Assembly: GCA_965153355.1 (NCBI GenBank)
Contig: OZ231126.1
Coordinates: 43,152,001 to 43,216,000 of the forward strand
From: Flaccisagitta enflata
Lineage: Eukaryota
DNA length: 64,000 bases
Direction: 5' to 3'
Position 1 is the first letter of the stretch; each line of letters starts with the position of its first letter. Made by a program: the position numbers and the translations under genes. The notes under the pieces were generated by a model that ran no database searches, was not told the DNA's origin, and was given only the letters and a program-made list of their open reading frames with translations. Shown here one piece after another: positions 20,495-50,292 of the stretch.

Positions 20495-22399
20495 GCCATG
20501 AAAAGTGCTGTAGATGTTCGACGAATAGAATTTGCGGTATTTTACCAACATTTTTTTTCCTCTTCTTTGTTGCTGCTACGTTGTTGTAGCACGAGGGTGG
20601 TTATTTTGACCCTAAATGCTCACATGTACCTAAAAGGCTAATCTGTTGGCCTTCTGTTTCTGTTTCTTTTTCTGTTTCTGTTTCAGTGTTACATGAAGTC
20701 TATTGAAACTTGCAGAAAATTTGATGTAAGGAAACTGTACATTTGTAACTGGTTTTGAAATACGTAAAATATATGATGCCAAAAAATGATTTGGTAATCA
20801 TATAACTCCATCGAGTGTTTTCCTACTGATTTGGTTATCAATGTCACAACGAACATGGAAATGGGAAAGTGAAAGCGGAAGTCACTCTATTTCAACATCG
20901 TTACTGTTATCATCATTTCCATTATATTAGATTCTCTTTGCAGTGGAAAATTCACGATTATTCACGATTCCTTCAAAATTAGTTAACGTTTCGCTATCGC
21001 AACATCATTGCGCACAAAACGAAAAAAAAAGTTTCCAACCACAACGCCCCCCCCCCCAAAAGAAAAGTGATTAGTTGTTCTTTCTTTTCTTGCGATGACG
21101 TCCAACTGGCGGTCGAACGAAACTGATTAGTGATAACTGCTCGTCAACCAAAGGGTGACAACTAACGGGAGAGTGAGATAAAGAGGTAAAGGGGGTGCAA
21201 GGGTTGAAGGGACGAATCGGGTGAGAAGTTGATGGGAAGAAGGAGTGATAGAGATGAAGGGGTGAAGGAGTCAAGATGTAGGTGAAGGTTTCGGAACGGT
21301 GAGGGGGATCAAGTTAGTGTTGAGGTTAAAAAATACACCTTAGTGAAATTAATTTACAGAATTAAACGGCGAAGCAGGGATAAGGTCTTAGGAACTGGTC
21401 GCCCTAGGGAGGGTAGAGAAGTTACGGGTCAATGAATGGCAATGACACGACTGACACGTTGTCCAATGTTCATGACAACTGATGGAAACGGTCAAAATTG
21501 AGGCGTAAGTCAAATGGAAATGGATCAACGTGATAGACGAGTCCTACACATTTTTGTGGAGTCGGAACAACGACCGACTGCGGCGATGCGCGATGACGCC
21601 GGCTCAGATACACACGTGGGAGATTTGAAAACAAGGATACACGGCTAACATGGCCGCAAGTGGCATAAGCAGGGAACTTAAACAGGGCCAGATATACGGC
21701 AATCCAGTCGCGGACGGTTGGGCAGGAGTAGTGACGTAAAAACCGCTCGGAATTCAAAAATATTACGGACAGACGGACAGACGGATGGACCGACCTACCA
21801 ACGGACACGGCAAGGTGTAGAGTCGCGTGTCCACGACTAAATACGAGGCTAATTATTTACTAGTCTAGTAGGACCTGAAGGAAAGTTGGGGACAAAGCCG
21901 TATACACTATACAATGTTCATTTTTTCTGCATTAAAGAAATGCTTCCAAAAAGGTCACCATGACGGAAAGACCGACCAACAGACCGACATGTCAAGTTAT
22001 AGTGTCACGTGAGTCGTGCACGCAACTAAAAGGGGTAAGGAGAAGACAGAGAGGTAGCAACGATGAGTTCGTCAGCTTTGAACTGCGAGGATGAAATGAC
22101 TGGATTTCAACTTCGTGATGACAAGTTGATGGCCGTTTGTCATCCGCTCTTTCCATGCCATTCATAATCAACGAGAACCAAGTTCAGTAATTGTGCCGTT
22201 TCACTCACACACTTTTTTTTTCTTTTTATCTTTTTCTTTTTACTTGTTTTTTCTTTTTATCCCATTCCTACACGTGCGAGCCTCCCCCTTATGTGTGTTC
22301 TTCTGCTTTTTGTGCTTCTGTTTCTGCTTCTCCTTGTACTTCTTCATCTTCTTCTACGTCAACTTGTTTTTCCTTTTTCTTTTCTTTTTTCCTTGTTAA

Positions 22400-22422
22400 A
22401 TTTTTTTCTCCTTCTTCTTCTC

Positions 22423-22465
<43 letters not shown>

Positions 22466-22617
22466 TTCGTCTTCTTCTTCTTCTTCTTCTTCTTCTTCTT
22501 CTTCTTCTTCTTCTTCTTCTTCTTCCTCTTCCTCGTCTTCTTCTTCTTCTTCATCATCTTCTTCTTCATCTTCTTCTTCATCTTTTTCTTTTTCTTTTTC
22601 TTCATCTTTTTCTTGTT

Positions 22618-22677
<60 letters not shown>

Positions 22678-22881
22678 CTTCTTCTTCTTCTTCTTCTTCT
22701 TCTTCTTCTTCTTCTTCTTCTTCTTCTTCTTCTTCTTCTTCTTCTTCTTCTTCTTCTTCTTCTTCTTCTTCTTCTTCTTCTTCTTTTTCCTTTTCCTATT
22801 CTTCTTCTTCTTCTTCATCATCTTCTTCTTCATCTTCTTCTTCATCTTTTTCTTTTTCTTTTTCTTTATCTTTTTCTTGTT

Positions 22882-22928
<47 letters not shown>

Positions 22929-22961
22929 GGTTTTTGTTGTTGTTCTTCTTCTTCTTCTTCT

Positions 22962-23008
<47 letters not shown>

Positions 23009-23340
23009 TTTTTCCTTTTCTTATTCTTCTTCTTCTTCTTCATCATCTTCTTCTTCATCTTCTTCTTCATCTTCTTCTTTTTCTTTTTCTTTATCTTTTT
23101 CTTGTTATTGTTGTTGTTGTTCTTCTTCTTCTTCTTCTTCTTTTTCTTTTTCTTTTTCTTTTTCTTTTTCTTTTTCTTTTTCTTTTTTTATTTCTTCTTC
23201 TTCTTCTTCTTCTTCGTTTTCTTCCTCTTCTTCTTCTTCTTCTTCTTCTTCTCCTTTTTCTTCTTTTTCATCTTGTTATCTTCTTCTTCTTCTTCTTCCG
23301 CTTCTTCTAATTTTTCTTTCTCTTTCTCTTTTTCTCTTTC

Positions 23341-23372
<32 letters not shown>

Positions 23373-23650
23373 TTTCTTTTTCTTTTTCTTTTTCTTTTTC
23401 TTTTTCTTTTTCTTTTTCTTTTTCTTCTTCTTCTTCTTCTTCTTCTTCTTCTTCTTCTTCTTTTTCTTCTTCTTTTTATTCTTCTTCTTCTTCTTCTTCT
23501 TCTTCTTCTTCTTCTTCTTCTTCTTCTTCATCTTCTAATTTTTCTTTTTCTTTTTCTTCTTCTATTTTTTCTCTCTTTTTTTCTTTTTTTTTTTTCTTTT
23601 TCTTTTTCTTCTTCTTTTTCTCTTTCTTTTTCTACTTCTTCTTTTATTTT
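22400..23650. repeat. Compound (CTT)n/(GTT)n/(CTTTTT)n array
   Basis: Direct reading; explains the poly-S/L/F/K ORFs. Confidence 0.97.
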
Positions 23651-24209: not shown

Positions 24210-26267
24210 ATTGACCCTGACCTTCATCTTCAAGTTGAACCCTCAAGCTGCAACCTTCCTGCAACCTCGCCAAGTAGGAGTAAAGACGAGAGGGGGCACT
24301 GAGGCAATCATCCACTCTGTCCAAGCCATCCTCAACAACACCGCCATCCCTGCTAACAGCAAGTGGGTGGTGCAGATCGACTTCAAGAATGCCTTTAACA
24401 CCATCGATCGGACAACTTTCCTGGCCGAAGTTCGCGAGCGCCTGCCGGGCCTTTCAGCTTTTGCTGAGTGGTGCTACGGCGCTCACTCACGGCTTGTGTT
24501 TGGCGAAGACATTATCTACAGCGCCACCGGGGTCCAGCAAGGGGACCCACTAGGACCTCTGCTCTTTGCCATTTGCCTCCATCTCCTCATCCGCCGCATC
24601 GAAGAAGTCGCTCCCAACCTGCTCATCAACGTCTGGTACCTGGATGATGGCGTTCTTGTTGGCGATCCAAAGTCCATCTTGGCCGCCTTCGAAATCATCA
24701 AGGAGTTCTCTCCCACCCTCGGGCTGGAGCTCAACTTGGAGAAGTCCACCCTCTGGCGGTGCCTGGAGGCCCGTGCTGACCAGACCCAATCCACCATCGG
24801 CACTATCACCCAACTTGGCATCCCTGAGGTCCAATCCAATGGCTTCGTTCTCCTGGGGGCTCCAGTTGGAAGCGAAGCATTCTCTCGAGCTACGGTTGCA
24901 GAACGTGTGGAAAAGTTGGCAGATCTTTTGGCCAAGGTTTCGTCCCTTCAAAATCCTCAGATTCAGCTCTCTTTGGTCCGCTCCTGCTTTGGCCTAAGTT
25001 CGCCTACTGCCTTAGGACGTGTGATCCAGCCTCCGTCATTGATCAATTTGGTTCCTTCGACGATGCCCAGTGCCGTGCCCTCTCTGACATAGCCGGGACG
25101 CCGCTCTCAACTCAAGACCCAGCATGGATCTTGGCGTCTCTCCCTGTGTCTCTTGGGGGCCTTGGCCTGAGAAGTGCCGCCATTCACAGTCCAGCTGCCT
25201 TCGTCGCTTCCAACCTGCAAACATCCCACCTGGTGGAGAAGATAATTGCACCACACAAAACCCTCCGTGACATCACTGCTGCAACTTCCCTGCTCACCAA
25301 CAACTCAACAAACGCCACAACTCCTTTGCCCGAGGAAGGTCTAACAGCAAAGACTCCACAAAAGCTTCTCTCGCGTCGCATTGACGAATCCCGCCTCCAT
25401 CTTCTCGAAAACATGGACACTGGGGATCGATTTCCGATTGTTCTTCAATCAGTGCGTCAGCAGGGGACCGGAGCCTTTCTGAATGTCATTCCATCACCAA
25501 CTCTAGGCCTCTACATCCCTCCGCGCGAATTCACTCTGGCCACAAAATACCGTCTTGGGCTCCCGGTCTATCCAAGTCCTGGGCCCTGCCTACTCTGCCA
25601 GAAGGATTCTGACATCTATGGAGACCACGCCATCTCAGCGTGCATCGTCAGTGGTGATCGAACTCGACGCCATGACAGCCTAGTCAACGCCATCTATGAA
25701 CGATCTCAATCAGCACTACTGCGCCCCACAAAGGAGGAACGGAATCTTCTCGACGACCGTTCAAGGCCTGGCGACATCACGTTTGAACAATCGTGGCGGC
25801 TCTGCCCGGGGAAGATGAAGATTGCTTTAGACGTCACAGTTGCGTCTCCATTTCGTCAAGACTCTCACTCCCATTCCGCCGCGGACGCCACCTTCGTCTT
25901 ACGAAAAGCGCGGGAACACAAATTCCGCAAGTATGAAGACAAACTTCCTCTTGGCGTCGGCCTAGTCCCCCTCCCGGTCACCACCTTCGGTCTGTGGGAG
26001 GAAAATGCAGCCGCCAATCTCCTAGAAATTGTCAACATCCAGTCCAGCAACTTGCGTGGCGACAAAAAGAATAATAAAAGACACTTCTTTGAGCGTCTGT
26101 CCGTGACTTTACAACGTGAAAACGGCTCCATGCTGCTTGAGCGCTCTCCGCTCCCTGCACCAAATGTTGATGGTGAACTTTAAATTGTTATCTCGTCTTT
26201 CGTCTTCTGTGATTTCCATTTGTGCCTTCCTATACATTTATACCTTATCGTCTGATAAAAAAAAAAA
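24210..26267 (+). mobile_element. Non-LTR retrotransposon, RLE group (CRE-like), 5'-truncated
   Basis: RT motifs DFKNAFNTIDR, GVQQGDPLGPLLF and WYLDDG; LPVSLGGLG; CxxC...H...C knuckle followed by RHD, RPGD, ALDVTV and HKFRKY (RLE). Short 3' UTR with an A11 tail at 26257-26267; A10 at the 5' junction. Confidence 0.9.
24211..26183 (+). pseudogene. RT-RLE polyprotein broken by one frameshift near 24995
   Basis: The track's ORFs 24211-25092 and 25131-26183 join if the frame shifts at ggcct|aagttc, giving ...SCFG(L)-KFAYCLRTCDPASV...AWILASLPVSLGGLG. The N-terminus is absent. Confidence 0.85.
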
Positions 26268-26928: not shown

Positions 26929-28163
26929 TATGTCACGAGTCTGAAAGATCTCGATCGATAGACTCGTTTTGCTTTTGCTATTTACAGAAAAACCAGGCCG
27001 GATACACGGCAATCCAGTCGCGGACGGTTGGGTAGGAGCAGTAATACGAAAACCACTTGGAATTCAGAAATGTGACGGACGGACCGACCGACACGGCAAG
27101 GTGTAGAGTCGCGTGTCCGCGACTAAAAACGTACGTAATGGTAAAGCTGTATGTCCGGTAATGGTAATGGTAAACGTACGTACGGGTTGGGTGCTTCACA
27201 TAGCACAAGTTGTTTATTTCTTTTCGCCCTCTCTACCTGATGTGGAGTGGCCAATTTTAGGACCCTTACCATTTTTTTCTTATCAAAAATCGTTCATCTT
27301 CCGTTTTCTAGAAAATAGGTTTTGAGGGCCTAATTTGCATAATGCAGTGGGATAAAGCAATATGCTGATATTGTTTGAATTAACTTTTACAAATTTCTAT
27401 TTTTCAAAGAATTGCAATTCTGCCTTTTCATAAGCTTTTTTATAGCTTATGTTCTAATATTTTATTCTATTTTTACAAGCATTATGTTTTTCTAAAATAA
27501 ATAATTGTCCTTTTTGTAACAAAACTACACAGGATTTTGCTGAATTCTGGGAAATCTGTGAAACTTTAAGGCCAAAACAAAAACGGAAGATGAAGGAATT
27601 TTGAAAAAAGGAAAATGGTCATCTTCATGATTTTTGCTCCTCCACATTACCTGAGTAGGGTGAAGGGATACTCCCAACTTTTGCTATGCGAAGCACGCAG
27701 CCGTACGGGTCTTCTTTTACAAGAGGATCTCACTTATATTTTCATCTATCATGACTATTTCTTCGCAGGAAATTTATGGACGTATAAGTATGGTTGAGTT
27801 TAGGGGTGGGGTTGAATTTAGGGGTAGGGTTGAGTTGAGGGGTAGGGTTGAGTTGAGGGGAAGGGCTGAGTTGAGGGGAAGGGTTGAGTTGAGGGGTAGG
27901 GTTGAGTTGAGGGGTAGGGTTGAGTTGAGGGGTAGGGTTGAGTTGAGGGGTAGGGTTGAGTTGAGGGGTAGGGTTGAGTTGAGGGGTAGGGTTGAGTTGA
28001 GGGGTAGGGTTGAGTTGAGTTGAGAAGTAGGGTTGAGTTGAGGGGTAGAGTTGAGTTGAGGGGTAGGGTTGAGTTGAGGGGTAGGGTTGAGTTGAGTTGA
28101 GGGGTAGGGTTGAGTTGAGTTGAGGGGTAGGGTTGAGTTTAGTTGAGGGATATGGTTGAGTTG

Positions 28164-28396
28164 AGTATGGAATAGGACTCCTTATACCCACTTGAAACAC
28201 CCTAATATTAGAATATCCTTTATAAGAATATGAGGGACCCCTATTTAATTTAGCAATTGACGTAATACACCACAAACTTTACAGATTTCTAATGCGGGTG
28301 ATATATAAACGAATATTTCTTTGGAATTTCAGTAAACCAAGAAATTCCAAAGAAATTTCGTCTTTCTTTCAGTCCGTATGACTTCAATGTCATACT
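28164..28396 (+). repeat. 5' LTR
   Basis: AGTATG...CATACT termini; no difference from 39596-39828 seen by eye. TATATAAA at 28302-28309. Confidence 0.97.
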
Positions 28397-28410
28397 TGGA
28401 GGCAGCGAGG
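28397..28410 (+). promoter_or_regulatory. Primer binding site (imperfect match to a tRNA-Leu-type 3' end)
   Basis: TGGAGGCAGCGAGG abuts the LTR and resembles the tRNA-Leu PBS TGGTGGCAGCGGTGG. Confidence 0.7.
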
Positions 28411-28620
28411 TCTAGTAAAATCTGCGCGCCACAAGTGGCTATTCGGTCAGTTGGGCAGGAGCACCGGCGGCGTTTCTAGGAAAAGGGATTCGACGCGGGT
28501 CTCTCCCAATACTCATCGATCATCGCGAAGCGGTATCGATCTACATTTAAACAGAAACATTATCGGCGGCTCTCGCCGTCAGAGGAAAAGCCGAGGTAGG
28601 ATCTTCGACTTTTTTCCAAG

Positions 28621-30960
28621 ATGTCAACCCCAGAGGAGATAAGTACGAATGAGCTTCTTCAAGAGATATCAGACTTGTCGGCTCGAATATCACAACTGAG
28701 ACCTGGTGTTTCAGCCACCATTTGGTGTCCAAAATGCTGGAGGCCTCCATCACAGCACAAAGGTGGGTCGATAAAAGGATGTAAATCAAAAACGAAAATG
28801 CCAGTTGATCAATTCACTCGTGAATTATTACAACAGAGGAATAACCTGGTAAAATGTATACGGTCTGCAGATACTGAAGGCAGACAGTCAGAGGCGATTG
28901 ATGCGCTACAAAATACAGTAGAGAGGCAGGCCCAGACCATCGAGTCAAATCAAGAAAGGATTAGAAGTCTTCAGGCAACTAAACAAGTCATGTTACACCT
29001 GATGCGCAATTTGAATGACGCCTATCTAGCATTTATTACAGGCGGGAATGAGAATAAGATGAAAAGGATTTTCAAAGATGTTGACGACTTATTGGTATCG
29101 CTTAACGCAGAATCAAAGTCTTCGAGTGAGAATGAAGATGATGATGATGGTGATGGTGAGGATGATGATGATGGGTGGGACCACACCGGGGATCGTACAA
29201 CATGGCCCATTGATAATGCAAGTATCATTGCAGATGGCAACAGATTGTTCCCGGCAGATAACAACGACGCGGGAGCGACGGAAGCAGGAGCAATAGGCGG
29301 CGTTGGAGCAACGAAGAAGGTACATTTCTCTTTCTCACCCGTCTTGACTCATTCGTCCAATTCGTCCAAGCGAAGCGCTGAGGCATCAGGTCAAACGACT
29401 GGAATATCAGGTCAAACGACTGGAACATCAGGTCAAACGACTGGAACATCAGGTCAGGCAGGAGTAGCATCCGCTCAAAGGATAGTGAATGGAATTTTGA
29501 GACCGGCGTCATCGAACAGGTCGGTGTACGATGTACAAGCCAATACACACACAATTTCCACCCCATCTCCCAGTACACACACAATTTCCACCCCATCTCC
29601 CAACCCACCCTCAACGCCGCAATATCCAGGGTTGTTTGAAAAACCAGGGGTGGTTCTCATATTTCCTAGAGGAGGAACTTTATGTGGGGGTGAAGCTGAC
29701 GCTGATAGCGTTGTTAGGGCAGCGAAAATTGTGAACGTTGATTTCAAGGAAAACATGGATGCATTATTGTACTTGGAACAAAGACGTAAGCTAGTTGATC
29801 AGTTGTCTTGCTATTTTGGCGCTTGCCCTATGTTCACTCATTTGGGGATATTTGCCTTGAAAGCTCATGTCTTCTATAAAACGTTTCAGCCTATCTTAAA
29901 GCGCGAGGCTACGTTTTCTAGCTTTATGGCATTCGTTAAGGAATTTGAGCATCAACTCTATCCTAATTTAGACTCGATTGCGTTGGGGAGACTACACAAC
30001 CGTAAACAACAAAACAATGAGTCGGTTTCAGAGTATTTCACAGATTATGCTGATTTGATATTCATCATTGGCAGACAAGAGGACGATTACATCCAACCTT
30101 TTTTGGCAGGATTATACAATAGAACATTGGCCCACACAGTGTCAAACGCGCAATATGAGGATGGGCAAAGAACATTGAGACGGCTTGCCAATCACGCTCA
30201 ACACATAGAGGCTCAGATAAGCCTCGATAAAGCATTCTTAGAGGGCAAGGATAACAAAAATAACCATCAACGCAACGTTTCGGCTTTAACCAACGCAGGT
30301 TCTCAACAAAGTTCGTCGGCTTCACATAGAGGAAGAGGCCACAATACGCAAACAAGAGGAGCACCGGCGCCACGAGGAGGAAGCGCTCCAGCCGGTAGAG
30401 GATGGTCAAATAGCGGCGCCGGTAGAGGATGGTCAAATAGCGGCGCCGGTAGAGGATGGTCAAATAGTGGCGCCGGTAGAGGTTGGTCGAATGGAAACGG
30501 CGGAGGAGGAAACTGGAGCAAGTACGCGCCAACTAGGAGTCAGAGTTTGCCACGAGGTGGTTACGCCGGAAGTGGCGCACGTGGAGGCGCCAACGCGTCG
30601 TCGGGAGCGTCGAGCGCGCAGGCGAGAGGAACGCAATCGTCATGGAAGGCGCACGTCAACGAAATTGGGGCGTCGATCTCGTCAGCGTCAGAGTCGGGGA
30701 TGACGCCGGAAGGTATCCTCCTGGCAATGAAGATGAAAAAGATGCAATTATCTGGATGTGCCGCTTGTTTAAGTAAGACGCATGTATGGAATGGATCATA
30801 TGAGTTTTGTCGGTCATTTTGTCCGTGTTGTGGCGTGGATTTGAGGAAAGAATGTCATATCGCCATAGAGTGTGAGGACAGACCGAAAGATAAATCTGAG
30901 GCCATCATCTTGGCCAGGGACGCTGACAGAAACGGAGACAAAGACAGATTGCAAGCATGA
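28621..30960 (+). CDS. gag: Gag (779 aa)
   Basis: First ORF after the PBS. Capsid-like QQNNESVSEYFTDY segment, RGG/RGW-rich region and C-terminal Cys/His knuckles (CAACLSKTH...C; CPCC...H...C). Confidence 0.88.
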   Translation: MSTPEEISTNELLQEISDLSARISQLRPGVSATIWCPKCWRPPSQHKGGSIKGCKSKTKMPVDQFTRELLQQRNNLVKCIRSADTEGRQSEAIDALQNTVERQAQTIESNQERIRSLQATKQVMLHLMRNLNDAYLAFITGGNENKMKRIFKDVDDLLVSLNAESKSSSENEDDDDGDGEDDDDGWDHTGDRTTWPIDNASIIADGNRLFPADNNDAGATEAGAIGGVGATKKVHFSFSPVLTHSSNSSKRSAEASGQTTGISGQTTGTSGQTTGTSGQAGVASAQRIVNGILRPASSNRSVYDVQANTHTISTPSPSTHTISTPSPNPPSTPQYPGLFEKPGVVLIFPRGGTLCGGEADADSVVRAAKIVNVDFKENMDALLYLEQRRKLVDQLSCYFGACPMFTHLGIFALKAHVFYKTFQPILKREATFSSFMAFVKEFEHQLYPNLDSIALGRLHNRKQQNNESVSEYFTDYADLIFIIGRQEDDYIQPFLAGLYNRTLAHTVSNAQYEDGQRTLRRLANHAQHIEAQISLDKAFLEGKDNKNNHQRNVSALTNAGSQQSSSASHRGRGHNTQTRGAPAPRGGSAPAGRGWSNSGAGRGWSNSGAGRGWSNSGAGRGWSNGNGGGGNWSKYAPTRSQSLPRGGYAGSGARGGANASSGASSAQARGTQSSWKAHVNEIGASISSASESGMTPEGILLAMKMKKMQLSGCAACLSKTHVWNGSYEFCRSFCPCCGVDLRKECHIAIECEDRPKDKSEAIILARDADRNGDKDRLQA

Positions 30961-30966
30961 CAATTA
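30958..30966 (+). promoter_or_regulatory. Stop-codon readthrough signal TGA-CAA-TTA
   Basis: The only stop between gag and pol is followed by CAATTA, matching the CARYYA leaky-stop hexamer. Confidence 0.8.
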
Positions 30967-33900
30967 CAGAAACCATTATCACAGAAAGAGGACGAGAAAA
31001 GTATTGGTGATAAATTACAATGTCTTTCAATATCAAAATCTCCGAATGAGTATGAGTTGAACATAGATTCAGTGGGACGTGTTTTAAATGGGCAAGAAAA
31101 GAAAGGCGACAATAGGAGTGGAAAAGAGGGTGACAGAAAAGGTGACAGTGAAAGTGACAGTGAGAGTGACAGTGAAAGTGACGGAGAAAATGACAAACAG
31201 TCATTGCATTGTGCTAACGTGAATAAAAAGGAATTTGAGGAAGAAGAGGAGGAAAATGGATGTTCAACGGGTTTTATGAAAGGAAGTAAATTCTATGTGG
31301 CATGTATGGTATCACCATGGGAGGAAGAGAGTGAAAATGGGAGTGATAATGGTCAAGATGGCGCGGTGAAAGGCGAATTTTTCATTGACACTGGAGCAGA
31401 GTGTAGTGTCATTGCCTCAGCTTTAGTAAAAGACATCAGAAAAAGGAAGGGTCCAGGAGTACAACTACTAGGTTTTACGGGCCAAGTAGGGGCGGAGGTG
31501 ACAGATATGGTGGATGTTACACTACATTTTTACCCACAAAGTGTGAGGTGTTCTTTCTATGTGTGCGATGTGGAGACATCAATTATAGGTTCTGACCTGC
31601 TTCGCGATAGGAGCCTGGGCCTCAACTTGAGCACGATGGATGAATTGTTGTATGTCAAAGATGAACGGATTTTGACATCGAGGTCGTTGGATGAAGCAGT
31701 TGATAGCCTGGTGGTAAGAAAGAGGGAGTGGGAAAGTCGTAGTTTAATGGAAAGGAATTGGCCAAAGGTTGAAAGAACTTACTGGATGTCAAACAGACGG
31801 ACTGTCACTCTTGATCCAACATCAATCACGATGGTCGAGTGCAAAATAGAGCCAAATTTTAGGACTGACAGTAAATTTTCATTTCTTTCGTTCTATGATG
31901 AGGAAATACATTCAGTCTACATACCCTCAGTCACGTATGAGAGAGGTACTGTAAATTTCATGATTCCAGTCACTAATCTTACCGGCGAGGAAATGACGAT
32001 TAAGGCAGGTTGGAGGATAGGTGAGATTGTGAAGCACGGTATCACCAAAGACGAACAAGAGACGCGTAGCTTGAAGATATTTCAAGTTGATGTCTGCAAA
32101 ATAGATGTGGTGATGAAAGGAACGAATGAGAAAAGCGAAAGTCAGACAGTTGAACGCGCGACAGTAAAGGAAAATAGTGAATACGACAATGTCAACACAA
32201 ACAACAAAAGGACAATCGTCAAAAACAACACTGGGTCCAAGAACAAAATAGTCGAGAACAACACTAACAACAAAAGAACAATCATCAAAAACAAAACAGA
32301 CGACAATGAAAAGTTAGTAGACAAACACATCAATGTCATCGCAAATGGTAACAACAAAATCGTCAATGTCATCGCAGATAGTAACAACAAAATCGGCAAT
32401 GTCATCAGTGATAATGACAACGGCATCGTCAATGTCATCGCTAATGATAAAAGGAACAAAACAGATGAAAGTTACGCAAAAAGAATAGTGTGTGAAGTGC
32501 TTGATATTCAGCCTCGCAAAAGTGTGATAGAAGGCTCACTTAAAGGTGCGGACAAAGTGAGAAAGGACAGAGAAAAAGCAGACACAAAAAGCAGCAAGCG
32601 CGAAAGAGGGGCGAGTGTTATTACGTCCATCGGAGAATCATATGATGAGAGAAAAAGGACTCGGACAGAGAGTGAGACGAATTTGGAACGGAGACAGAAG
32701 GCCTCGAAAAACGAAGTAGTAAAGAGAGAACGAAAATGGACTCAGGGCGCTGAGGAAGACAAACGCGAAAGGCTGGAAAGAGAAATGATAGGATTGATAT
32801 GCGGAGTGACGGACGAAGTCAAAAGTGGACGGACGGACGAAGGAGAGTTGTCAGCTGTCTGTAGAGACGGAGTAGGGTGCAACGATGTACGTGTGGAGGA
32901 GGTTGTGGTTGAAAAAGCTGCAGCGTCACACATACACAGCGAAGCGGCAGCAGGAGCTGGAAAGAAAAGCAGCTGCGGGAAGCAGCCAGGCGAAAAACGG
33001 AACGGCCTGCATGACGTCACAGGCCCCGTTCTTCTCTCTGATATAGTGAACAAAGGCAGACTTAGTAATGATCTGTTGAAGAGGTGTCAGGACACAGGAA
33101 TTTACTGTGATTTAGAGGCGAAGCAACAAAGTCCTAATCTCCATCTGTTGGGGGTCAGAGCAAACTTTGACCTTGAAAAGGACAAAAGAGCAAAATCAGA
33201 ATTTTGGCCATCAGATGAAATATTTCTAGCAAATTTTGATTTTTCAGGAGTAGAGGAGCCATATTTGAGCAAGTTGAAGGAGCTTTTAGTATGTTTCAAG
33301 GATATTTTTTACAATGTTGACAGGAAAGATCAGTTCAGAGCTGGCATTCAGAATATCCCATTGGTGCATATTGAGGTTCAACCAGGAGTGGTGCCAGTCA
33401 AGGATAAGCAGAGAAGATGTCCAGACAGTAAGAGGAAGTATTTGAAAAAGCATATTGAAGACCTTATTGACATGGGTGTTATTAAGGAAGTGGATAATTC
33501 CAGAGAATCTGCTTCTATCTATGCATCCAATGCTTTTATCATTTTGGAAGAAAGATGGTATAGTGGTGAGAACAAAATTAGGTACAAAAGTCGAATGGTA
33601 GTAGACCAAAAATCTCTCAACAAATCATTGAAAAAGAGTTCATTCCCTTTGCCAAATTGTGAGGCGTTCAGAAGAGAGCTGTCACAATATAAAGTGTTCT
33701 CAAGCTTTGACTTCGTAGAATTTTTTCATCAGGTCAAAACAGATGAGCAGACACAACAGCTATTTGGTATCTATGCTTTAGGCAAGGTTTACAAGTCTCT
33801 CAGATTATTGATGGGAAATATACAATCGGCCAACTTGGGGCAATTTACCTCATCAAAATGCTATGAAAATTGCCCTAGATCATATCCTTTTCAGGATGAT

Positions 33901-36900
33901 GTTTCATGCTGTTCAATGACCAAGGAAGAACATATAGAGAAGGATTTGCCTGACTTTTTGGCCACAACAAGTTACTACAATCTGCTTGTGAACCCGAAGA
34001 AGTGTATTTTCTTCAGAGATGAGGCCAGAATTCTAGGTCACTTAGTGGGAGAAGAGAGGCTGTCATTATCATCAGAAAAGATTGATAAGATCAAGAAATT
34101 GGCTTTCCCAGAAACAAAAGCTAAATTGAATGCAATGCTTGCATTTTTTGTCTGGTTTGACAGAATGGCAGTCAGACTGTCAGAATTGGCAGCACCTCTG
34201 AGAGAGCTAAACAAACCGGGTGTTCGTTTCAGGCCGTCAGCGATTCATCATAAGGCATTGCAGGACATAAAGGGGCATTTATTAGACCCAGAATGCTGTG
34301 TGTTAAGGACACCTAGTGCTGATGTGGAGGACACGATCTTTTGTTTTTGTGACGCCTCATCTAGCAGCCTGAGTGGGATACTGACACAGATGATGTTACC
34401 ACTGAAGCACAAGCAATCAGGAGAGCAGGGAAGAAAGGAATTGCATTTGGTGGGAGTATGGAGCTCATGCATACCCGAGAACTGGCGTTGTTACCCAATT
34501 TGGTTGAAGGAACTGGTCGCCCTTTGGCAAATGACGCATAAGTATTTTTTCCTACTTTCTGGCAGGCAATTTTTTGTTGTGAGTGACAGCGAGACTTGCA
34601 GGGATTGGGCAAGTATCGATCGAGTGCCAATGGATTTGGCAAGAAAAATCCTTTCTTTGCAACGGTTCGATTTCAAGGTCATTCATGTGGATGGGAAATT
34701 GAACATGGCAGATATCTTTAGCAGGCAGGAAAGGACATTTGACCCTCAAGGAAATAAGATATCACCAGTAGGGACCTATCCAAGGTTCATGGAAGGCCGT
34801 TTGATAAATGGAGATGGAAATCCAATAAGTTGGAAAAAACTCTTCACAGCACCAAAAAGCAAAAGAATGGAAGATTTCTTCGTTCGGAATAGAAAGCAGA
34901 AATTGGCGAAGGCAGTTTCAGTCGAGAAAAAAGAAAAGCCAATTCATGACGACTATGATTCCCGCAAAGACGCGGTTGACAGCCAAATAGAAGGGACAAT
35001 GGAGGTGGTGACAGACAATGACAAATCGACAAAAACAACACGTGAGTGTGTAAGAGAATTCACCTATGATAGAGTGATGGATTCCTTGAGAGCGGGTGAT
35101 GAAATTGATGACGTCAGTGGTGAGGGATTCGTCACCGACTTGCATGAGGGCGTCGTTGAGGACGATGGTGACGTCATTGAGGGCGACGACGACGTCGACG
35201 ACGACGTCGCATCGAAGGAAGCTTGCCGTCGAGGTGTCAAGGAGGAAGAGGAGGAGGAGAAGAAGGAGCTTGGGAGGATGAACATCTGTTCGTTCGGATT
35301 GACGGATGAGGAGATAGGAGAAGGATGGAATGATGCGGATGACGAAGAAGTGGAGGACATCTTTAGAGACGTGACCCTGCCCGTGTATGACGAAGACAAT
35401 CTGGAAAAGGCAAAGGAAATGCAAGAAGATGAAACAATTAGGAAGTGTGCTCAGTATTTGAGGGGCGAGGAGGAAATTCCCCGAAAAATAAATGCTTTGA
35501 GCCTGCCTAAGGATATACAGACGTTCTTACGACATAAGCTATGCTTTAGGCTGAATGAGCAGGGCATATTATTTCGCCTATGGACACATAAAAACGGTTC
35601 AATTGATCCTCTTTTGGTGGTTGGTGATTCACAAATGGACAGACTGATTGCTAAAACCCACGAATTTGATGTAGACTGCCCATCTGGTCTCTCACACATC
35701 GGTCAAAGAAAGACATTTACGGCAATCGCAAAAAAGTGGTACGCGTTCAGACTGAGATTCAAGGTGAACACATACATCTCACGGTGCGCAAGTTGCGCTT
35801 TGAATAACCACATAACAAACAGAGCAAGAAAAGAGGATGATGGAGAACAAATTGCATGTCAAAGCGGAGAATTGGTAGTTATGGACTTTGCGGGTCCATA
35901 TACAATGTTTAGAACAGCGTCAGGCTTGCCAAAATATGTCTTAATATTTTGTGACAGTTTCAGCCGTTACGCTTTTGGTACGCCAACCAATGGTACTAAT
36001 GATGACTATGTACTGGAGGGCGTAATGGAAATGAGAAAAGCGTGGAATGGATTGCCTAAATCTATAGTATGCGATAACGCATTACTATCAAAGCACAGTG
36101 CTACCAGGAAGTTTTTAATGGATAGTGGTGTAACTATTACCCATGGAATGGCGAACATTAGCAGGTGCCAAACAAAGGCCGAACGACTAATATCAACGAT
36201 TAGTCGTTTAATAATGAAGTATCACTCATCTAATCCAAAAACACCATTCTCAAAGTTGGTAAATGAATCTATCATTTGTTATAATAACTCGGTGCATAGT
36301 GGGCTAGGCCCTATGACCGAGGAAGGGGCGATTTCGCCACGGGAATTACACTTTTCACCTACCTTAAAGGCGCCGTTGATGAACATTGCGTCGAAAGAAG
36401 ATGGAAAAGGAAGCAAATCAGCAAAGGAGACAATTTCTTTGGCGAAAAGGGCGGCGGAAGAGTCTCTTCTGTACAACGTACAGTCGTTTCTGAAGAAAAA
36501 AGATCACAGTTCGCCAACTGATTATGGCCGTAGGCTTAAAAGTGGAGATCTTTGCTTGCTAAAAAGGACTTCATTCGCAAAAGGCATTCAGAAAAAGTTG
36601 GCATTCAAATTACAAAAAAATGCCTTTGAGGTCATGGACCGCGTCGGTACCAATACTTTTAGATGCAAAAGTATCTTGACAGATGATATCTGTATTCTGC
36701 CGGGTGACTTACTACTAATCACCAGAAACCAAACGAAGGAGGACTTACTAAGATTGTGTGAACGCATGGAAGAGATGGCCACAAAGAACGAAGCCTCGAA
36801 TTCGCCACCAATGACAAGAAGAAGGGCGCGTGGTGCCCAATTATCGCCGTCGATTGACGCCAATTTCGTCCTAAATGCGGGGCTGACGACGAAGAGCCAC

Positions 36901-36939
36901 TACGGTGGAATCGGCCTCGATGCGTTGGAATGGATTTGA
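30961..36939 (+). CDS. pol: Pol (protease, dUTPase-like fold, RT, RNase H, integrase), in frame with gag
   Basis: IDTGA (GAC 31387); RT FDFVEFFHQV and FQDD (33889-33900); RNase H CDAS (34351), KELVA, VSDS and ADIFSR; integrase H-H-CxxC with D 35884, D 36073 and E 36181 (D-x35-E). The frame is open from the codon after the gag stop. Confidence 0.95.
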   Translation, partial: QLQKPLSQKEDEKSIGDKLQCLSISKSPNEYELNIDSVGRVLNGQEKKGDNRSGKEGDRKGDSESDSESDSESDGENDKQSLHCANVNKKEFEEEEEENGCSTGFMKGSKFYVACMVSPWEEESENGSDNGQDGAVKGEFFIDTGAECSVIASALVKDIRKRKGPGVQLLGFTGQVGAEVTDMVDVTLHFYPQSVRCSFYVCDVETSIIGSDLLRDRSLGLNLSTMDELLYVKDERILTSRSLDEAVDSLVVRKREWESRSLMERNWPKVERTYWMSNRRTVTLDPTSITMVECKIEPNFRTDSKFSFLSFYDEEIHSVYIPSVTYERGTVNFMIPVTNLTGEEMTIKAGWRIGEIVKHGITKDEQETRSLKIFQVDVCKIDVVMKGTNEKSESQTVERATVKENSEYDNVNTNNKRTIVKNNTGSKNKIVENNTNNKRTIIKNKTDDNEKLVDKHINVIANGNNKIVNVIADSNNKIGNVISDNDNGIVNVIANDKRNKTDESYAKRIVCEVLDIQPRKSVIEGSLKGADKVRKDREKADTKSSKRERGASVITSIGESYDERKRTRTESETNLERRQKASKNEVVKRERKWTQGAEEDKRERLEREMIGLICGVTDEVKSGRTDEGELSAVCRDGVGCNDVRVEEVVVEKAAASHIHSEAAAGAGKKSSCGKQPGEKRNGLHDVTGPVLLSDIVNKGRLSNDLLKRCQDTGIYCDLEAKQQSPNLHLLGVRANFDLEKDKRAKSEFWPSDEIFLANFDFSGVEEPYLSKLKELLVCFKDIFYNVDRKDQFRAGIQNIPLVHIEVQPGVVPVKDKQRRCPDSKRKYLKKHIEDLIDMGVIKEVDNSRESASIYASNAFIILEERWYSGENKIRYKSRMVVDQKSLNKSLKKSSFPLPNCEAFRRELSQYKVFSSFDFVEFFHQVKTDEQTQQLFGIYALGKVYKSLRLLMGNIQSANLGQFTSSKCYENCPRSYPFQDDVSCCSMTKEEHIEKDLPDFLATTSYYNLLVNPKKCIFFRDEARILGHLVGEERLSLSSEKIDKIKKLAFPETKAKLNAMLAFFVWFDRMAVRLSELAAPLRELNKPGVRFRPSAIHHKALQDIKGHLLDPECCVLRTPSADVEDTIFCFCDASSSSLSGILTQMMLPLKHKQSGEQGRKELHLVGVWSSCIPENWRCYPIWLKELVALWQMTHKYFFLLSGRQFFVVSDSETCRDWASIDRVPMDLARKILSLQRFDFKVIHVDGKLNMADIFSRQERTFDPQGNKISPVGTYPRFMEGRLINGDGNPISWKKLFTAPKSKRMEDFFVRNRKQKLAKAVSVEKKEKPIHDDYDSRKDAVDSQIEGTMEVVTDNDKSTKTTRECVREFTYDRVMDSLRAGDEIDDVSGEGFVTDLHEGVVEDDGDVIEGDDDVDDDVASKEACRRGVKEEEEEEKKELGRMNICSFGLTDEEIGEGWNDADDEEVEDIFRDVTLPVYDEDNLEKAKEMQEDETIRKCAQYLRGEEEIPRKINALSLPKDIQTFLRHKLCFRLNEQGILFRLWTHKNGSIDPLLVVGDSQMDRLIAKTHEFDVDCPSGLSHIGQRKTFTAIAKKWYAFRLRFKVNTYISRCASCALNNHITNRARKEDDGEQIACQSGELVVMDFAGPYTMFRTASGLPKYVLIFCDSFSRYAFGTPTNGTNDDYVLEGVMEMRKAWNGLPKSIVCDNALLSKHSATRKFLMDSGVTITHGMANISRCQTKAERLISTISRLIMKYHSSNPKTPFSKLVNESIICYNNSVHSGLGPMTEEGAISPRELHFSPTLKAPLMNIASKEDGKGSKSAKETISLAKRAAEESLLYNVQSFLKKKDHSSPTDYGRRLKSGDLCLLKRTSFAKGIQKKLAFKLQKNAFEVMDRVGTNTFRCKSILTDDICILPGDLLLITRNQTKEDLLRLCERMEEMATKNEASNSPPMTRRRARGAQLSPSIDANFVLNAGLTTKSHYGGIGLDALEWI

Positions 36940-36946
36940 GACAGTA

Positions 36947-36982
36947 TTTTTTTTTTTTTTTGGTTTTTGTATTTTTTTTATT
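36947..36982 (-). terminator. Antisense poly(A) signal followed by an A15 tract
   Basis: Minus-strand AATAAA at 36982-36977, a 15-nt spacer, then A15 (plus-strand T at 36947-36961), about 110 nt downstream of the 143-aa ORF stop. Confidence 0.6.
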
Positions 36983-37092
36983 AGCAAAATTTTGGATAAA
37001 ATCAAGAAATGAAAGAAAGAAATAATTAGAAAAATTTTGAATTAAAAACCCTTAAGGGCAAAGTGGGGAAGAAAATCTAAGTGGGGAAAAAT

Positions 37093-37524
37093 TTAAACCC
37101 ACAGCGAACGGGCATTATTCTCATCGCAATGGCGGGGGGCCGGTCCTCGCATCTCGATGGTTTGGACTCGGGCTCTGGCACTGTCGGTGGCGTTCCTAAA
37201 CGGAACGCCGCTGACAGCTGGCGTGGCCATGGGGCTGGTGGAGGCGTCTTGGGCCTGATGAGGCCTCAGAAGGTCCAACGCAGCCCTTGGGACAGACTGC
37301 AGGGTGGCCAAGAAGCGGTCCACCGCTGCCAGTTTGCGCCTGAGGGCTACGAGGACCCCTGAGACCAGCATCAGGGCACCGATGACCCCTCCGACCGAGC
37401 CCCATGTCACCGCCTCAGAGTCCGGTTGGACGGACGCAACCGTTGGACTGGGAAGCGAGGTTGATGATTCTTCGTAAAAGTAATCATCAACCGAGCTTCC
37501 CGTGTAAAGGGTAAAGTTTGCCAT
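37093..37524 (-). CDS. Antisense small single-pass membrane protein (143 aa)
   Basis: caaaATGG start context; visibly GC-rich against AT-rich flanks. N-F-T sequon at residue 3, S/T/P stalk, TM at about residues 39-61 with two GxxxG motifs, followed by RRK. Confidence 0.75.
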   Translation of the reverse strand: MANFTLYTGSSVDDYFYEESSTSLPSPTVASVQPDSEAVTWGSVGGVIGALMLVSGVLVALRRKLAAVDRFLATLQSVPRAALDLLRPHQAQDASTSPMATPAVSGVPFRNATDSARARVQTIEMRGPAPRHCDENNARSLWV

Positions 37525-38576
37525 TTTGATTTTGAATAATGACTTTTGGAAACAAATTTAAATTAAATTCCCTCTAAATGTAAAAAGAAAGAAGAAACCG
37601 CCGTTCGCTGTTAGAAGAAAGAAGAGAAATGAAGTAAAAGAAAATGAATAAAAAGAAGATGTAATATAAAGCCGCTTCTTTTGAGACAGAAATACGAGCC
37701 TGTAAAAAGAGAAAATAGAACAATCAGTGTTTAATATTAGAGACGCTCTAATGATCAATGAATGTGAAATGTGAACGATGAATGAATGTGATAAATGAAC
37801 CTGGCCAGGTAAACGAACGAATGTTGACAGCTGATTGATGAATAGTGAACGAAGTGTGAACGGGGGAGTGAATGCGCGGTAGTAAATGAATCAAAGAAAC
37901 AAATGAACAATCAGCTCGAAGTTGATCAGAGAGGGCGTCTAATTTTAGAGTGATGGAAATAAGTGGCTAATGAAATTACGGAAGAGAAAAAGTGAAGAAA
38001 CGAAAAAGAATTTGCTAACCCCAGGGGGGCAAATTAAAGTAAGGTCTCGACAATGAATGTGAGCCTTTCGAAAACCGGTATTATTTAGGATAGTATGCCC
38101 CCGGCGCTATCTAGGGACGTGCCCGATTATCAATTCTTTAGTCTGAAGGATAAAGAATTTTCACTAAGCCCTTACCAGATGGTATTTGGGAGTGATTAAC
38201 AATGCGCAGACAGTACTGTAGTCGTATTTTTTTTTATGGAATTCCTATATTTTTTTTACGACATGAAGTCGATGATGGTTATATTTTTTTCTCGATTGAT
38301 GATTTAGTTCCCAAATGGAAAATCTTGAGAATAAAAACGAATTGAAAACGGCAGGAGTGAGGGAAAAATAATGAGTGACCAATGAAGTAAATTTGGCTAA
38401 ATCAGCTGCCAGCTTTGGACTTTGATCAAAGAAATGGAAAAAAGGGTCGGTGTGAAATTAAATTTGAAATTATTGATTTCTATCCTTTTCTCTCATGCTT
38501 AATTTCCCATTGTTTCACTACTCTGTATGGACTTTACCTTTTTTTTCCCGACTGTCGATTGACTGAGCATGCTGAT

Positions 38577-38889
38577 TTACACGTTTTGTATGGCATACTG
38601 ACTGTTTCGTCTTAGTGGTGTTGGAGTATTGGGAGCATTGCCTTGATTTGCTAGGATTTGCGTTGTTTGTAACTTTTGTTGAAAAATTTTGAATATGGTG
38701 AGAATAATATCGAGCAACACCAGGGCAATGGTGCCAAATTGAAGATATTCGACATCGTCAGTATTCTGTAATACTTTCTTTTTATACTCAGTTTTGAGAT
38801 ACTTCTCTGATACTGGTAAACATCGAGAAGTAGTGGTTCTTCCGGTAGCCGTACGATACACAATCAATTGACAAGCATCCCCGTCTTTC
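38577..38889 (-). CDS. Antisense spliced type I membrane protein (157 aa), exon 2
   Basis: Follows the acceptor ...ATTGATTTTAG|G; 313 nt, in frame with exon 1. Encodes KDGDACQLIVYR..., TM FGTIALVLLDIILTIF, and a tail ending AIQNV*. Confidence 0.8.
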
Positions 38890-39056
38890 CTAAAATCAAT
38901 GATTGACAGGCATGTTAACGATTAGAAATAGAAGTATTTGAATTCAATGCAAGCCTGAACTAATTAATATGTTACCATGGCGAAGAAGGTAATAATAACT
39001 TGAACTGACTTTTGCATTAATCTTGTGTTCAATAATTTTCTCCCCCCCCCACTTAC

Positions 39057-39217
39057 CTGTAGCCCACGCTTTCCAAATACCCCTCAAATTTTTGAAAACA
39101 CTTATTCGAGGGAACTGGATCTTTAACGTAATCCTCAAGTGTTTGCTCATTTGATTCAGAGGCCATTCCCATGGTGAAGAGAAGAGATGCCAACGCGAGA
39201 AAGAGATATTGGTTCAT
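39057..39217 (-). CDS. Antisense spliced type I membrane protein (157 aa), exon 1
   Basis: GCCATCATG start; signal-peptide-like MNQYLFLALASLLFTMGMAS; 161 nt ending CAG|GTAAGT. The 167-nt intron is 39056-38890. Confidence 0.8.
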
Positions 39218-39587
39218 GATGGCTTGTCGCAGTAGTCAAGCGGAGAAGTGATTAGGGAATAAAAGGAATTTTGGTAACCTAACAAATGCCGAGTCTTTTA
39301 TAGTTTCTTTGGATTAGAAGGGTTGTTGATTGATAATTTGAATATTTAGAATTCTCCTTTTCTGTCTTAGTTACTATCCAAACCTATAAGTCGTGACTTA
39401 TAAAAGTTAAAACGTGACCGTTATTTTCCGTTCATTCAAAGATTGTTATTGTTACGCAAACGCCCGCATTTCTGAGGTTTTTCATTTTTAGGTGGGTAAA
39501 AGGAGATCGACTTTGTTTTTAAATTCCGGGAATTTGAAAAAAAGAAAAAAAAAACCTAGTTCACACTAATGGTTTTTTTTTGTCAAC

Positions 39588-39595
39588 AGGGGGGA
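39588..39595 (+). promoter_or_regulatory. Polypurine tract
   Basis: AGGGGGGA immediately before the 3' LTR, preceded by a T-run. Confidence 0.8.
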
Positions 39596-39828
39596 AGTAT
39601 GGAATAGGACTCCTTATACCCACTTGAAACACCCTAATATTAGAATATCCTTTATAAGAATATGAGGGACCCCTATTTAATTTAGCAATTGACGTAATAC
39701 ACCACAAACTTTACAGATTTCTAATGCGGGTGATATATAAACGAATATTTCTTTGGAATTTCAGTAAACCAAGAAATTCCAAAGAAATTTCGTCTTTCTT
39801 TCAGTCCGTATGACTTCAATGTCATACT
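39596..39828 (+). repeat. 3' LTR
   Basis: Copy of 28164-28396. Confidence 0.97.
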
Positions 39829-41278
39829 GTTGAGTTGAGGGGTAGGGTTGAGTTAGGGGTAGGGATGAATTCAAGGGAAGGGTTGAGTTCAGGAGCTGGA
39901 TTGAGTTTTGGGGTAGGGGTGGGTGTAGGGGTAGGATGAGTTAAGGGGTAAGGATGAGTTTAGGGGCAGGGGTGATGTTAGGGGCAGGGGTGATTCTAGG
40001 GTAGGGGTGAGTTTGTGGGTAGGGGTGAGTTTAGGGGTAGGGGTGAGTAAAGGGGTAGGGGTGTGTTTATGGGTAGGGGTGTGTTTATGGGTAGGGGTGA
40101 TTTTAGGGGTAGGGGTGAGTTTAGGGGTAGGGGTGAGTTTAGGGGTAGGAGTGAATTTAGGGGTAGGGGTGAGTGTAGGGGTAGGGGTGAGTGTAGGGGC
40201 AGCGGTGAGTGTAGGGGCAGGGGTGAGTGTAGGGGTGAGTTTAGGTTGTGTCAAATAAAAAAACACTAAAGTGAGGTCCTCTTGTAAAAGTTTGCCTAAA
40301 TACGTCATGGTAAAGGTGTATGTCTGGCCGGCTCCTTCACGTAGACCCCCAAATTTATTCCAAATTCCTCAACCTGGACTCGAAGTTCCCCCCCCCCCCC
40401 CCCCCCCGGCTCAGTCCTGCCCCTTGTTCGTTTCAACTAAGGTTGCCTGTAGAATCCAGAGCGCCTGAGCCGCCTCATTCAGGGCTCGTAATCAATAGCC
40501 CCCCGGCTCCCTCCTATCGTCTCTGAGATTTGAATTTCATTGCTTTCTAGAAACAAAGTCATGTGTGAGTAGGCAAGGGCAGTGATAAAAAAAAGACTAC
40601 ACTTTTTATTTTAAGAAGAACCATGATTTTAAGAACATCAAGCCTTGAAATAGCTCAAAAATTAAGAACGTCAGTTTTTTTACTAGTAAATTTTTAAAAA
40701 AGTAACTAAAGCATATGAGCAGGAGCTCAGCACCGGAAAAAAAAAACACCAACATGCTTATAAAGCTATCAGAGACCCACCGACCGACATAGGGTGCACA
40801 CGCCCTAAGAAAAAATATCTATATTGATGGCTCGCCCTCCTAATCGCGTTGCGTGCTTTGCGACTCTACACCCCGCTTTGTCATCCGTCCTAGTCGGTGT
40901 GTCCGTCCGTCCATCACACTTGATACTTTTTTTATGTTTTTGCAGTTTTTGGCATCAACGCTCTAGCCTAAGATTGTGCTGAAGATAGTGACCTCAAACG
41001 TGGCCCCTGCCCAACCGCACGCAACTGGGATAGCCGTGTATCCGGTTTTGTCAGAGAGAGATAAGGTGAGTCAAGACAAGTTGTGTGTTCCCACTGTTTT
41101 AGTCGCGTGCTACGCGACTCTACACCCCGCTTTGTCCATCCATCGGTCGGTTGGTTGGTCGATCATATTTTACTTTTTTACGAGTTTTATTTTTAGTCGC
41201 GTGCACGTGACTCAACACCTTGGTTGGTCGGTTGGTCTGTCCGTCAGTTCGTCAGTAATACTTTAAAGTTTGAGAGAA

Positions 41279-41469: not shown

Positions 41470-42419
41470 GGAGAAAATACATAAAAAACTCTTGGAATGA
41501 TTGTAAAATCTGCCTGTTTGTCAGAACAAGGCCGGATACACGGCTACCCCAGTCGCGTGCGGGTGGGCATGGGCCGTAATTGAGGTCACCAGATCATTTG
41601 GGCAGGAGCAGTGAGGCTAAAAATCCCAAAAACCCAAAAAAAGTAAAGTGTGACGGACCGACAGACAGACCGACGGATGGACGGACAGACCGACAAAGCG
41701 AGGTGTAGAGTCGCGTAGGACGCGACTAAAAACTTATGCAAATGTTCATAAAATGAGTTTGAGACCTGAAGTATCTTTCTTTTTCAAAGAATTGAACTTG
41801 AACTACAAAAAAAAAAAAAAGTCCGGATACACGGCAATCCAGTCGCGGACAGTTGGGCAGGAGCAGTAATGCGAAACCATTCGGAATTCAAAAATGTGAC
41901 CTACCGACTGACCGACACGGCAAGGTGTAAAGTCGCGTGTCCGCGACAAAAAATATATTCAATGTGCGGCAGCTACCGGAAGCTACCGGAATCCGCACCT
42001 TTGATCATCAACATTCTCAAATCCTCATTTCCAAAATTCCACAGAAGACAATTTCTCGTTCCCCCTCGGCCGCTGTCGCCATCCTGGATCCCATCGCCTC
42101 CGGCATCATCACAGACATGACGGCGTGTCTCGCCGAGGAAAAATCGGCGTTGGCCAGCGTTGTTGAAGAATCCGCGACAAGGTTTACGTCAATTATTAGA
42201 CTACAGACGACGCGTTACTCGTTTTTGACCCTCGATGGTGAAGTCTTAAGATAGCTCTTCATCGGTGACACTCCTGCCAGCGTCACAACGGGAACTGTAT
42301 CACCAAATGCGGTTGAAGCTTTCGTGGTGTCCAAAATGGGATGGATCCACATCCTCGCCGGTTTTACTTCAAATCATGCGCAAGGCCAGGTTTGCCCATA
42401 CATGCATGTGAACGCACAC

Positions 42420-50259: not shown

Positions 50260-50292
50260 NNNNNNNNNNNNNNNNNNNNNNNNNNNNNNNNN
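50260..50292. other. Assembly gap (33 N)
   Basis: Run of n. Confidence 0.99.

Follow-up and report, generated by a model that had tools for sequence, protein, structure and literature searches.

A recently inserted Ty3/gypsy-type LTR retrotransposon of Flaccisagitta enflata carries on its antisense strand what is probably a real gene, here called gene A, which we read as a two-exon protein-coding gene with a probability of roughly 0.6. All positions refer to the window, that is, the whole stretch of 64,000 nucleotides that was analysed. Gene A would be transcribed most likely from its own internal promoter, for which TATAAAAG at 39302-39295 is the candidate, and the host spliceosome would take out an intron of 167 nt. 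The mRNA would then be translated into a precursor of 157 aa, from which a signal peptide would be cleaved to leave a small type I membrane protein made up of an ectodomain of ~85 aa with a conserved Cys..Cys hairpin, a transmembrane (TM) helix in which an Asp is conserved, and a short RRNS tail. The same element also carries gene B, and the two are conserved antisense genes for what are predicted to be small single-pass membrane proteins.

The host element is 11,665 bp long (28164-39828, plus strand). It is bounded by a 5' LTR (28164-28396, plus strand) and a 3' LTR (39596-39828, plus strand) of 233 nt each, which are direct repeats with the short inverted termini AGTATG..CATACT and are 100% identical to each other. 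A PBS-like sequence beginning with TGG (28397-28410, plus strand) is located directly 3' of the 5' LTR; a tRNA scan of the window gave zero tRNA genes. At the other end, the polypurine tract AGGGGGGA (39588-39595, plus strand) adjoins the 3' LTR. The plus strand encodes a gag-like ORF of 779 aa (28621-30960), whose match to Retrotrans_gag (E = 6.6e-4) is under Pfam's cut-off, and a pol ORF of 1960 aa (31057-36939) with protease, reverse transcriptase (RT), RNase H and integrase. The pol domains are RVP (residues 105-189), RVT_1 (844-995), RT_RNaseH (1089-1204) and Integrase_H2C2 together with rve (1546-1696), the scores of these last two being under Pfam's cut-offs, and their order (PR-RT-RH-IN) is that of Ty3/gypsy elements. 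The identical LTRs and the plus-strand gag and pol bear out what the initial annotation had proposed, namely that the locus lies inside a retrotransposon and antisense to it. Moreover, short tandem repeats that keep the reading frame and have a period of 33 nt occur in the N-terminal third of pol (31106-31186 and 32193-32445), and ~650 aa between the protease and the RT have no assigned domain.

The insertion target is an 18-nt minisatellite, the left half of which occupies 27721-28163, while the same array resumes on the right of the element at 39829-40268. This minisatellite is G/T-rich, with a unit of about GTAGGGTTGAGTTGAGGG, and it was split by the insertion; its two halves are only ~80% alike, whereas the LTRs are identical. 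GTTG is found on both sides of the element within the 18-nt repeat target and, since the target itself is a repeat, the size of the target-site duplication is not readable.

Further features were noted elsewhere in the window. Just upstream of the LTR element there is an RT ORF (24211-25092, plus strand; RVT_1 E = 5.9e-18), and next to it an ORF of 350 aa that matches no Pfam family (25131-26183, plus strand); the two together have the appearance of a separate retroelement. Long artificial ORFs on both strands are created by a (TTCTTC)n array of 1.2 kb and ~207 copies (22406-23643). Furthermore, a short dispersed repeat of ~100-170 nt occurs in three copies that are 61-85% alike (21680-21854, 26990-27140 and 41815-41964), with a GACGGAC-type microsatellite head and a conserved GGCAAGGTGTAGAGTCGCGTGTCC core, and it may be a SINE- or MITE-like element. 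The run of 33 N at 50260-50292 is an assembly gap.

Downstream of pol, the 2.6 kb between the pol stop (36939) and the start of the 3' LTR (39596) house genes A and B. A sense-strand env-like gene was ruled out there, since no plus-strand ATG ORF longer than 77 aa is found in 36940-39600. Gene A runs antisense to gag-pol in this stretch and starts at GCCATCATG at 39217 on the minus strand. Its exon 1 (39217-39057, minus strand, 161 nt) contains the ATG, a signal-peptide-like segment and the conserved residues 27-53, and it ends at CAG|GTAAGT. The predicted spliceosomal intron (39056-38890, minus strand) is 167 nt long with 34% GC and reads GTAAGT..CTAAT..TTTTAG, the CTAAT branch-like motif being 32 nt before the acceptor TTTTAG|G. 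Exon 2 (38889-38577, minus strand, 313 nt) encodes residues 54-157, with two conserved Cys, the TM helix with its Asp and the RRNS tail. The exons join in frame through the split codon AG+G, which gives Arg54 and an intron of phase 2. The intron sequence belongs to the GT-AG class, with a consensus donor, a branch-like motif, a pyrimidine-rich acceptor and a compatible phase. This anatomy had been put forward in the initial annotation, and the exon and intron limits, the motifs, the Arg54 junction and the 157-aa product were all confirmed by reading the minus strand and by scripted translation. It was likewise correct that a plain ORF list gives only a 96-aa fragment of the gene, which starts with TTG (38577-38867).

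Several observations single out this pair of splice sites. Between the ATG and the stop of gene A there are 42 in-frame GT..AG pairs, among which the proposed one has the sole consensus donor and gives the longest product. When both strands of the 64-kb window were scanned for two-exon models of equal quality, gene A was the only one, and each of 30 shuffles gave 0; the criteria of the scan were fixed after the candidate had been seen, so the result shows rarity and is not a p-value. Moreover, exon 2 together with its in-frame extension upstream to the next stop contains no Met, and the conserved frame therefore requires an upstream exon or a non-AUG start. Concerning transcription, the candidate internal antisense promoter TATAAAAG (minus strand) lies 85 nt upstream of the ATG and is a motif only.

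The persistence of an intron in such a place is explained by its orientation. The intron signals are opposite to the element's genomic RNA, so that the intron would never be spliced there and would be recopied in each retrotransposition. The initial annotation had argued that a spliceosomal intron survives retrotransposition because it is antisense to the genomic RNA, and this is sound, established logic, being the mirror image of the intron-marked retrotransposition reporters described in PMC12786077.

The spliced product has 157 aa, with Cys40, Cys60 and Cys77. Residues 5-18 are hydrophobic (mean Kyte-Doolittle value of 2.15), and small residues are present at -3/-1 for a cleavage after residue 19. 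There is one TM stretch at ~102-124, and the tail beyond it is rich in Q, N, T and P; the description given earlier (three Cys, one TM and a P/N/Q-rich tail) agrees with this. These features, taken from hydropathy and from the -3/-1 rule as heuristic calls, suggest a type I single-pass membrane protein with a cleavable signal peptide. In an AlphaFold2 model, the part encoded by exon 2 forms a hairpin and a long helix over the TM stretch, with a mean pLDDT of 65 and a pTM of 0.29, which is too low in confidence and too plain for a comparison with known folds. A complex predicted between the mature exon 1 peptide and the ectodomain half of exon 2 scored 0.02 (a prediction made without controls). 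Neither exon peptide matched a Pfam family at E up to 1, the gene A product has no bZIP or other Pfam domain, and ESM Atlas gave no usable match.

Gene B, which does not appear in the initial annotation, is located at 37093-37524 on the minus strand and encodes 143 aa. Its product is a predicted single-pass membrane protein that lacks a signal peptide; NFT stands at residue 3, and the TM helix, at ~41-61, is rich in glycine. The start context is AAAATGG, and AATAAA is found ~110 nt past the stop (36977-36982, minus strand), which is a motif only. Among 294 candidates, 17 homologue clusters of gene B were recovered at 51-94% identity, of which 16 are 134-144 aa long and one is 108 aa. The start, the TM helix and the motifs DASTSPM and FRNATDS are conserved (13 of the 17 clusters were aligned with the window). 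Pfam has no family for gene B at E up to 0.01, and a profile search with its alignment in metagenome and viral contigs gave no related loci.

Relatives of gene A were also found, all of them unnamed ORF calls on short ENA/Logan metagenome contigs. In the search with the exon 2 peptide, three of the four candidates passed, which represent three clusters with 21 members, all examined. Two of these clusters share 96-98% identity with the window, against 59-64% for the third, in which the frame is kept, indels come in whole codons and the C-terminal RRNSQYAIQ motif is the same. One cluster member (P0017) is a frameshifted copy. The exon 2 variant identical to the window is present on 34 contigs, and many near-identical ORFs lie on separate contigs. 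A HMMER profile search of 1.84 billion representatives added nine proteins at E<=1e-3, six of them at E<=1e-10, so that relatives reach down to 23-48% identity. Their common pattern is Gly-x-(Ala/Pro)-Cys-Gln, a second Cys followed by Leu-Pro, then Thr-Asp, the TM helix, mostly with Asp (or Asn/Gln), and RRNS near the end.

The search with the exon 1 peptide gave three candidates, and all three are relatives with 79-92% identity. In the most distant one, 10 of the 11 changes fall in residues 1-26 and one in residues 27-53 (Fisher p = 0.002), as expected if a signal peptide that evolves fast precedes a mature domain under constraint. Regarding these data, the comparative evidence argues that gene A codes for a protein and that both of its exons are conserved at the protein level.

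The way in which exon 2 has changed points in the same direction. The exon 2 DNA of the window was mutated at random to 63% amino-acid identity 2000 times, and 8% of the resulting sequences were free of stops. In this neutral simulation, replaced residues had a BLOSUM62 score of -0.47 +/- 0.26 on average and of 0.37 at most. For the four aligned members of the diverged subfamily, the values observed were 0.54, 0.27, 0.46 and 0.60, one of which (0.27) is below the simulated maximum. Exon 2 replacements are thus more conservative than in the neutral simulation. On the other hand, database ORFs are pre-selected as open, so the conservation of the frame is partly a matter of ascertainment and an open frame alone is weak evidence. 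Five exon 2 substitutions appear among the differences listed for RNA-library contigs, four of them synonymous third-position changes and the other Leu92Gln (numbered in the exon 2 peptide), at a site that also varies among relatives. The probability of at least four synonymous changes in five at a neutral rate of 0.25 is 0.016, a figure that refers to the listed differences, 15 further ones being present. The indels listed near gene A are either intronic (+1 at 39041) or part of the 3' flank (-2 at 38539).

The role of gene A may be that of an element-encoded accessory membrane factor, in which the polar TM residue and the phosphorylatable RRNS tail would engage host membrane proteins; this is a tentative proposal by analogy, comparable in logic to the small TM accessory proteins of retroviruses. 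HIV-1 Vpu, for instance, combines one TM helix with a short cytoplasmic tail whose serines can be phosphorylated; it is encoded by the sense strand and has neither a cleaved signal peptide nor a Cys-containing ectodomain. The likeness between the gene A product and Vpu (single TM, short tail) would therefore be one of kind only, as a functional analogy.

The main alternative on this point of role is that the gene model is right and the gene is a passenger. The element would have captured one host gene, or two, that are copied with it but play no part in retrotransposition, and the distant relatives would be ordinary host paralogues. This explanation overlaps with the preferred one in structure and differs from it only in role, and we consider it rather unlikely. 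In its favour, the capture of genes by LTR retrotransposons has been discussed as a source of antisense extra ORFs (PMC7264820; PMC11963269), and the distant family members, known from ORFs alone, might lie outside retrotransposons. However, this copy has identical LTRs, and in it the two unrelated small membrane-protein genes are both intact and point the same way; their variants are graded as in element subfamilies, with identities of 96-98% and ~60% for gene A and of 94, 81, 71, 66 and 51-57% for gene B. In the RNA libraries, contigs with an identity of >=90% cover the region as far as the LTR, and the one named X19 (39416-39792) connects the region upstream of gene A to the 3' LTR, which also speaks against a mere passenger. 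The only joint listed in these contigs, from 37023 to 39642 in X19, was considered as a sign of copies without the region and was rejected, as one side is 22 nt at 90% likeness.

Returning to a role for the element itself, a broader and considerably less probable idea is that a lineage of LTR retrotransposons in one marine eukaryote keeps a two-gene antisense membrane module, whose products would act jointly at the membrane in place of an envelope gene. Gene A would be its intron-containing type I component with a signal peptide, and gene B its type III-like component with a glycine-rich TM helix. The antisense strand would then serve as a protected coding space, in which intron-bearing, host-style genes with their own promoters could survive reverse transcription. 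Cell-to-cell passage or superinfection control are examples of the roles that such a module might have.

The structure of the gene is a separate matter, and here the boundaries of the similarity are informative. Eleven family ORFs extend upstream of the acceptor (drawn from 10 cluster members, P0030 and P0034, with the seven members of the third cluster forming one lineage). Arg is found exactly at the junction in 10 of these 11, consistent with ..AG|G, and the similarity between lineages ends at the acceptor, upstream of which the residues are SIIDF, LTLLH, VTIPS or MTY. The exon 1 relatives are all similar up to ..GYR. Past that point one stops as the window does and two continue with Tyr-Val-Gly, a read-through which indicates that the donor G|GT is kept in those two, and the read-through tails run in different frames. 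Conservation thus appears to start at the predicted acceptor and to stop at the predicted donor. Profile searches based on the alignment of exon 2 gave no related DNA loci among viral contigs, prokaryote-genome contigs or JGI metagenome contigs, nor did a search of viral contigs with pol. The conservation of GT and AG is therefore read only from these read-through peptides; of the conservation of frame and splice sites in relatives that had been raised at the outset, the frame holds for both exons and the splice sites only in this indirect way.

Concerning RNA, a search of public runs with 38300-39600 found part of this sequence in 20 of the 24 runs listed, mostly marine metagenomes, from 10 studies. 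Three RNA runs are among those listed, with small shares, and the DNA runs with small shares are no evidence of habitat. The region 36000-39828 was then compared with four RNA runs at 90% likeness. Three marine metatranscriptome runs yielded 7, 6 and 11 contigs over it, and the polyA RNA run of the source organism gave 0 reads on these 3.8 kb, with only ~6% of the run sampled, which is too little for a test. The 39057/38889 junction predicted in the initial annotation was not found in the three metatranscriptome runs. The sole contig over the donor (X12, 38911-39234) and the sole contig over the acceptor (X14, 38785-38937) are both unspliced, the depth over the intron is about the same as over the exons, and none of the 21 ORFs in the three exon 2 clusters is fused to exon 1. 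These contigs, in which rare forms are dropped and strand information is absent, are expected to be unspliced if they come from DNA or from sense element RNA, which must keep the intron. Hence, the metatranscriptome contigs do not support the splicing of gene A, nor do they exclude it.

This result leaves room for a real coding region with a different structure, be it another first exon (for example, in or near the 3' LTR), a non-AUG start or a longer unit that includes gene B, with the 54-aa ATG ORF at 39217-39053 as a separate small ORF. Such a structure is unlikely in our view. The missing junction read agrees with it, and so does P0010, a close relative of exon 2 and the exception at the boundary, in which unrelated residues ending in ..FFP stand directly before exon 2, at DGDAC; this upstream sequence may represent a different version of the acceptor region or a further upstream exon, or the contig may be chimeric. 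It would also fit that no canonical AATAAA was found near the stop of gene A, while one comes after gene B, and that more splice-like motifs exist between the two genes on the minus strand, namely a GGTAAG donor-like motif near 38175 and a strong polypyrimidine-CAG acceptor-like motif near 37701. These could mark a further antisense intron, and the antisense unit may have a more complicated make-up than two simple genes; both sites are traversed unspliced by contigs from the RNA libraries. However, exon 1 is itself conserved, with signal-peptide-like substitutions, and it ends at the sole consensus donor of compatible phase, and the TM protein encoded by exon 2 could take up a type I topology only with a signal sequence.

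The last explanation, in which there would be no gene but a chance open frame with splice-like motifs in the element's 3' untranslated region, its likeness among copies being due to recent copying or to a role in cis of the RNA or DNA, is very improbable: it would account for RNA libraries that show unspliced sequence only and for the lack of Pfam and usable Atlas matches, but not for a motif pattern kept in relatives down to 23-48% identity, replacements conservative beyond the neutral simulation, listed exon 2 substitutions that are mostly synonymous, the 0 comparable models in the shuffles and the lack of any Rfam family match in 27000-41000.

Antisense extra ORFs of LTR retrotransposons are described mainly in flowering plants and are routinely missed by annotation. 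The closest comparison in position is the aORF-3R of plant Ty3/gypsy elements (maize Grande gene23, rice RIRE2, and Silene and other Retand elements), an antisense ORF between pol and the 3' LTR that is found in most copies of a family and whose function is unknown according to PMC7264820 and PMC11963269. The antisense ORF of Grande has its own promoter, as stated in the title of a reference cited in those papers, and the Retand ones contain a TRP28 domain in 97% of clusters, the plant products being of a nuclear or DNA-binding type (PMC7264820; PMC11963269). Genes A (39217-38577) and B (37524-37093) are likewise antisense between pol and the 3' LTR. In contrast to the plant ORFs, the host here is marine, the products are predicted small membrane proteins with no Pfam match, and one of the genes has a predicted intron. 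No homology to plant TRP28 or Grande gene23 (Pfam PF04195 or similar) is present in either exon peptide or in gene B. The word intron has 0 occurrences in the main texts of PMC7264820 and PMC11963269, and keyword searches of open-access papers gave no case of an intron-containing antisense gene in an LTR retrotransposon. With gene A, antisense extra ORFs would be known from a marine organism too, and genes A and B together would bring in small membrane proteins as a product class new to such ORFs. Gene A would moreover illustrate, in a clean natural case, how a spliceosomal intron on the non-template sense is passed on through reverse transcription.

Among retroviruses, HBZ of HTLV-1, to which other deltaretroviral antisense genes are related, is an antisense gene in the 3' part of the genome whose mRNA is spliced (PMC1459196; mentioned in PMC11963269). 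Its transcripts start in the 3' LTR and its product is a bZIP nuclear protein, whereas the gene A product is a predicted membrane protein, and the ATG and the TATA motif of gene A are internal, at 379 and 294 nt from the LTR; the two genes have no sequence relation. Moreover, LTR elements of the Vesta lineage in bdelloid rotifers carry a short ORF3 downstream of pol with a TM stretch and conserved Cys, and these products have been proposed as env substitutes (PMC5408684). ORF3 is a third ORF downstream of pol; the passages that describe it mention no antisense ORF, and the word intron is absent from the main text of PMC5408684. Genes A and B would bear on the question of whether envelope-less elements encode membrane factors of their own.
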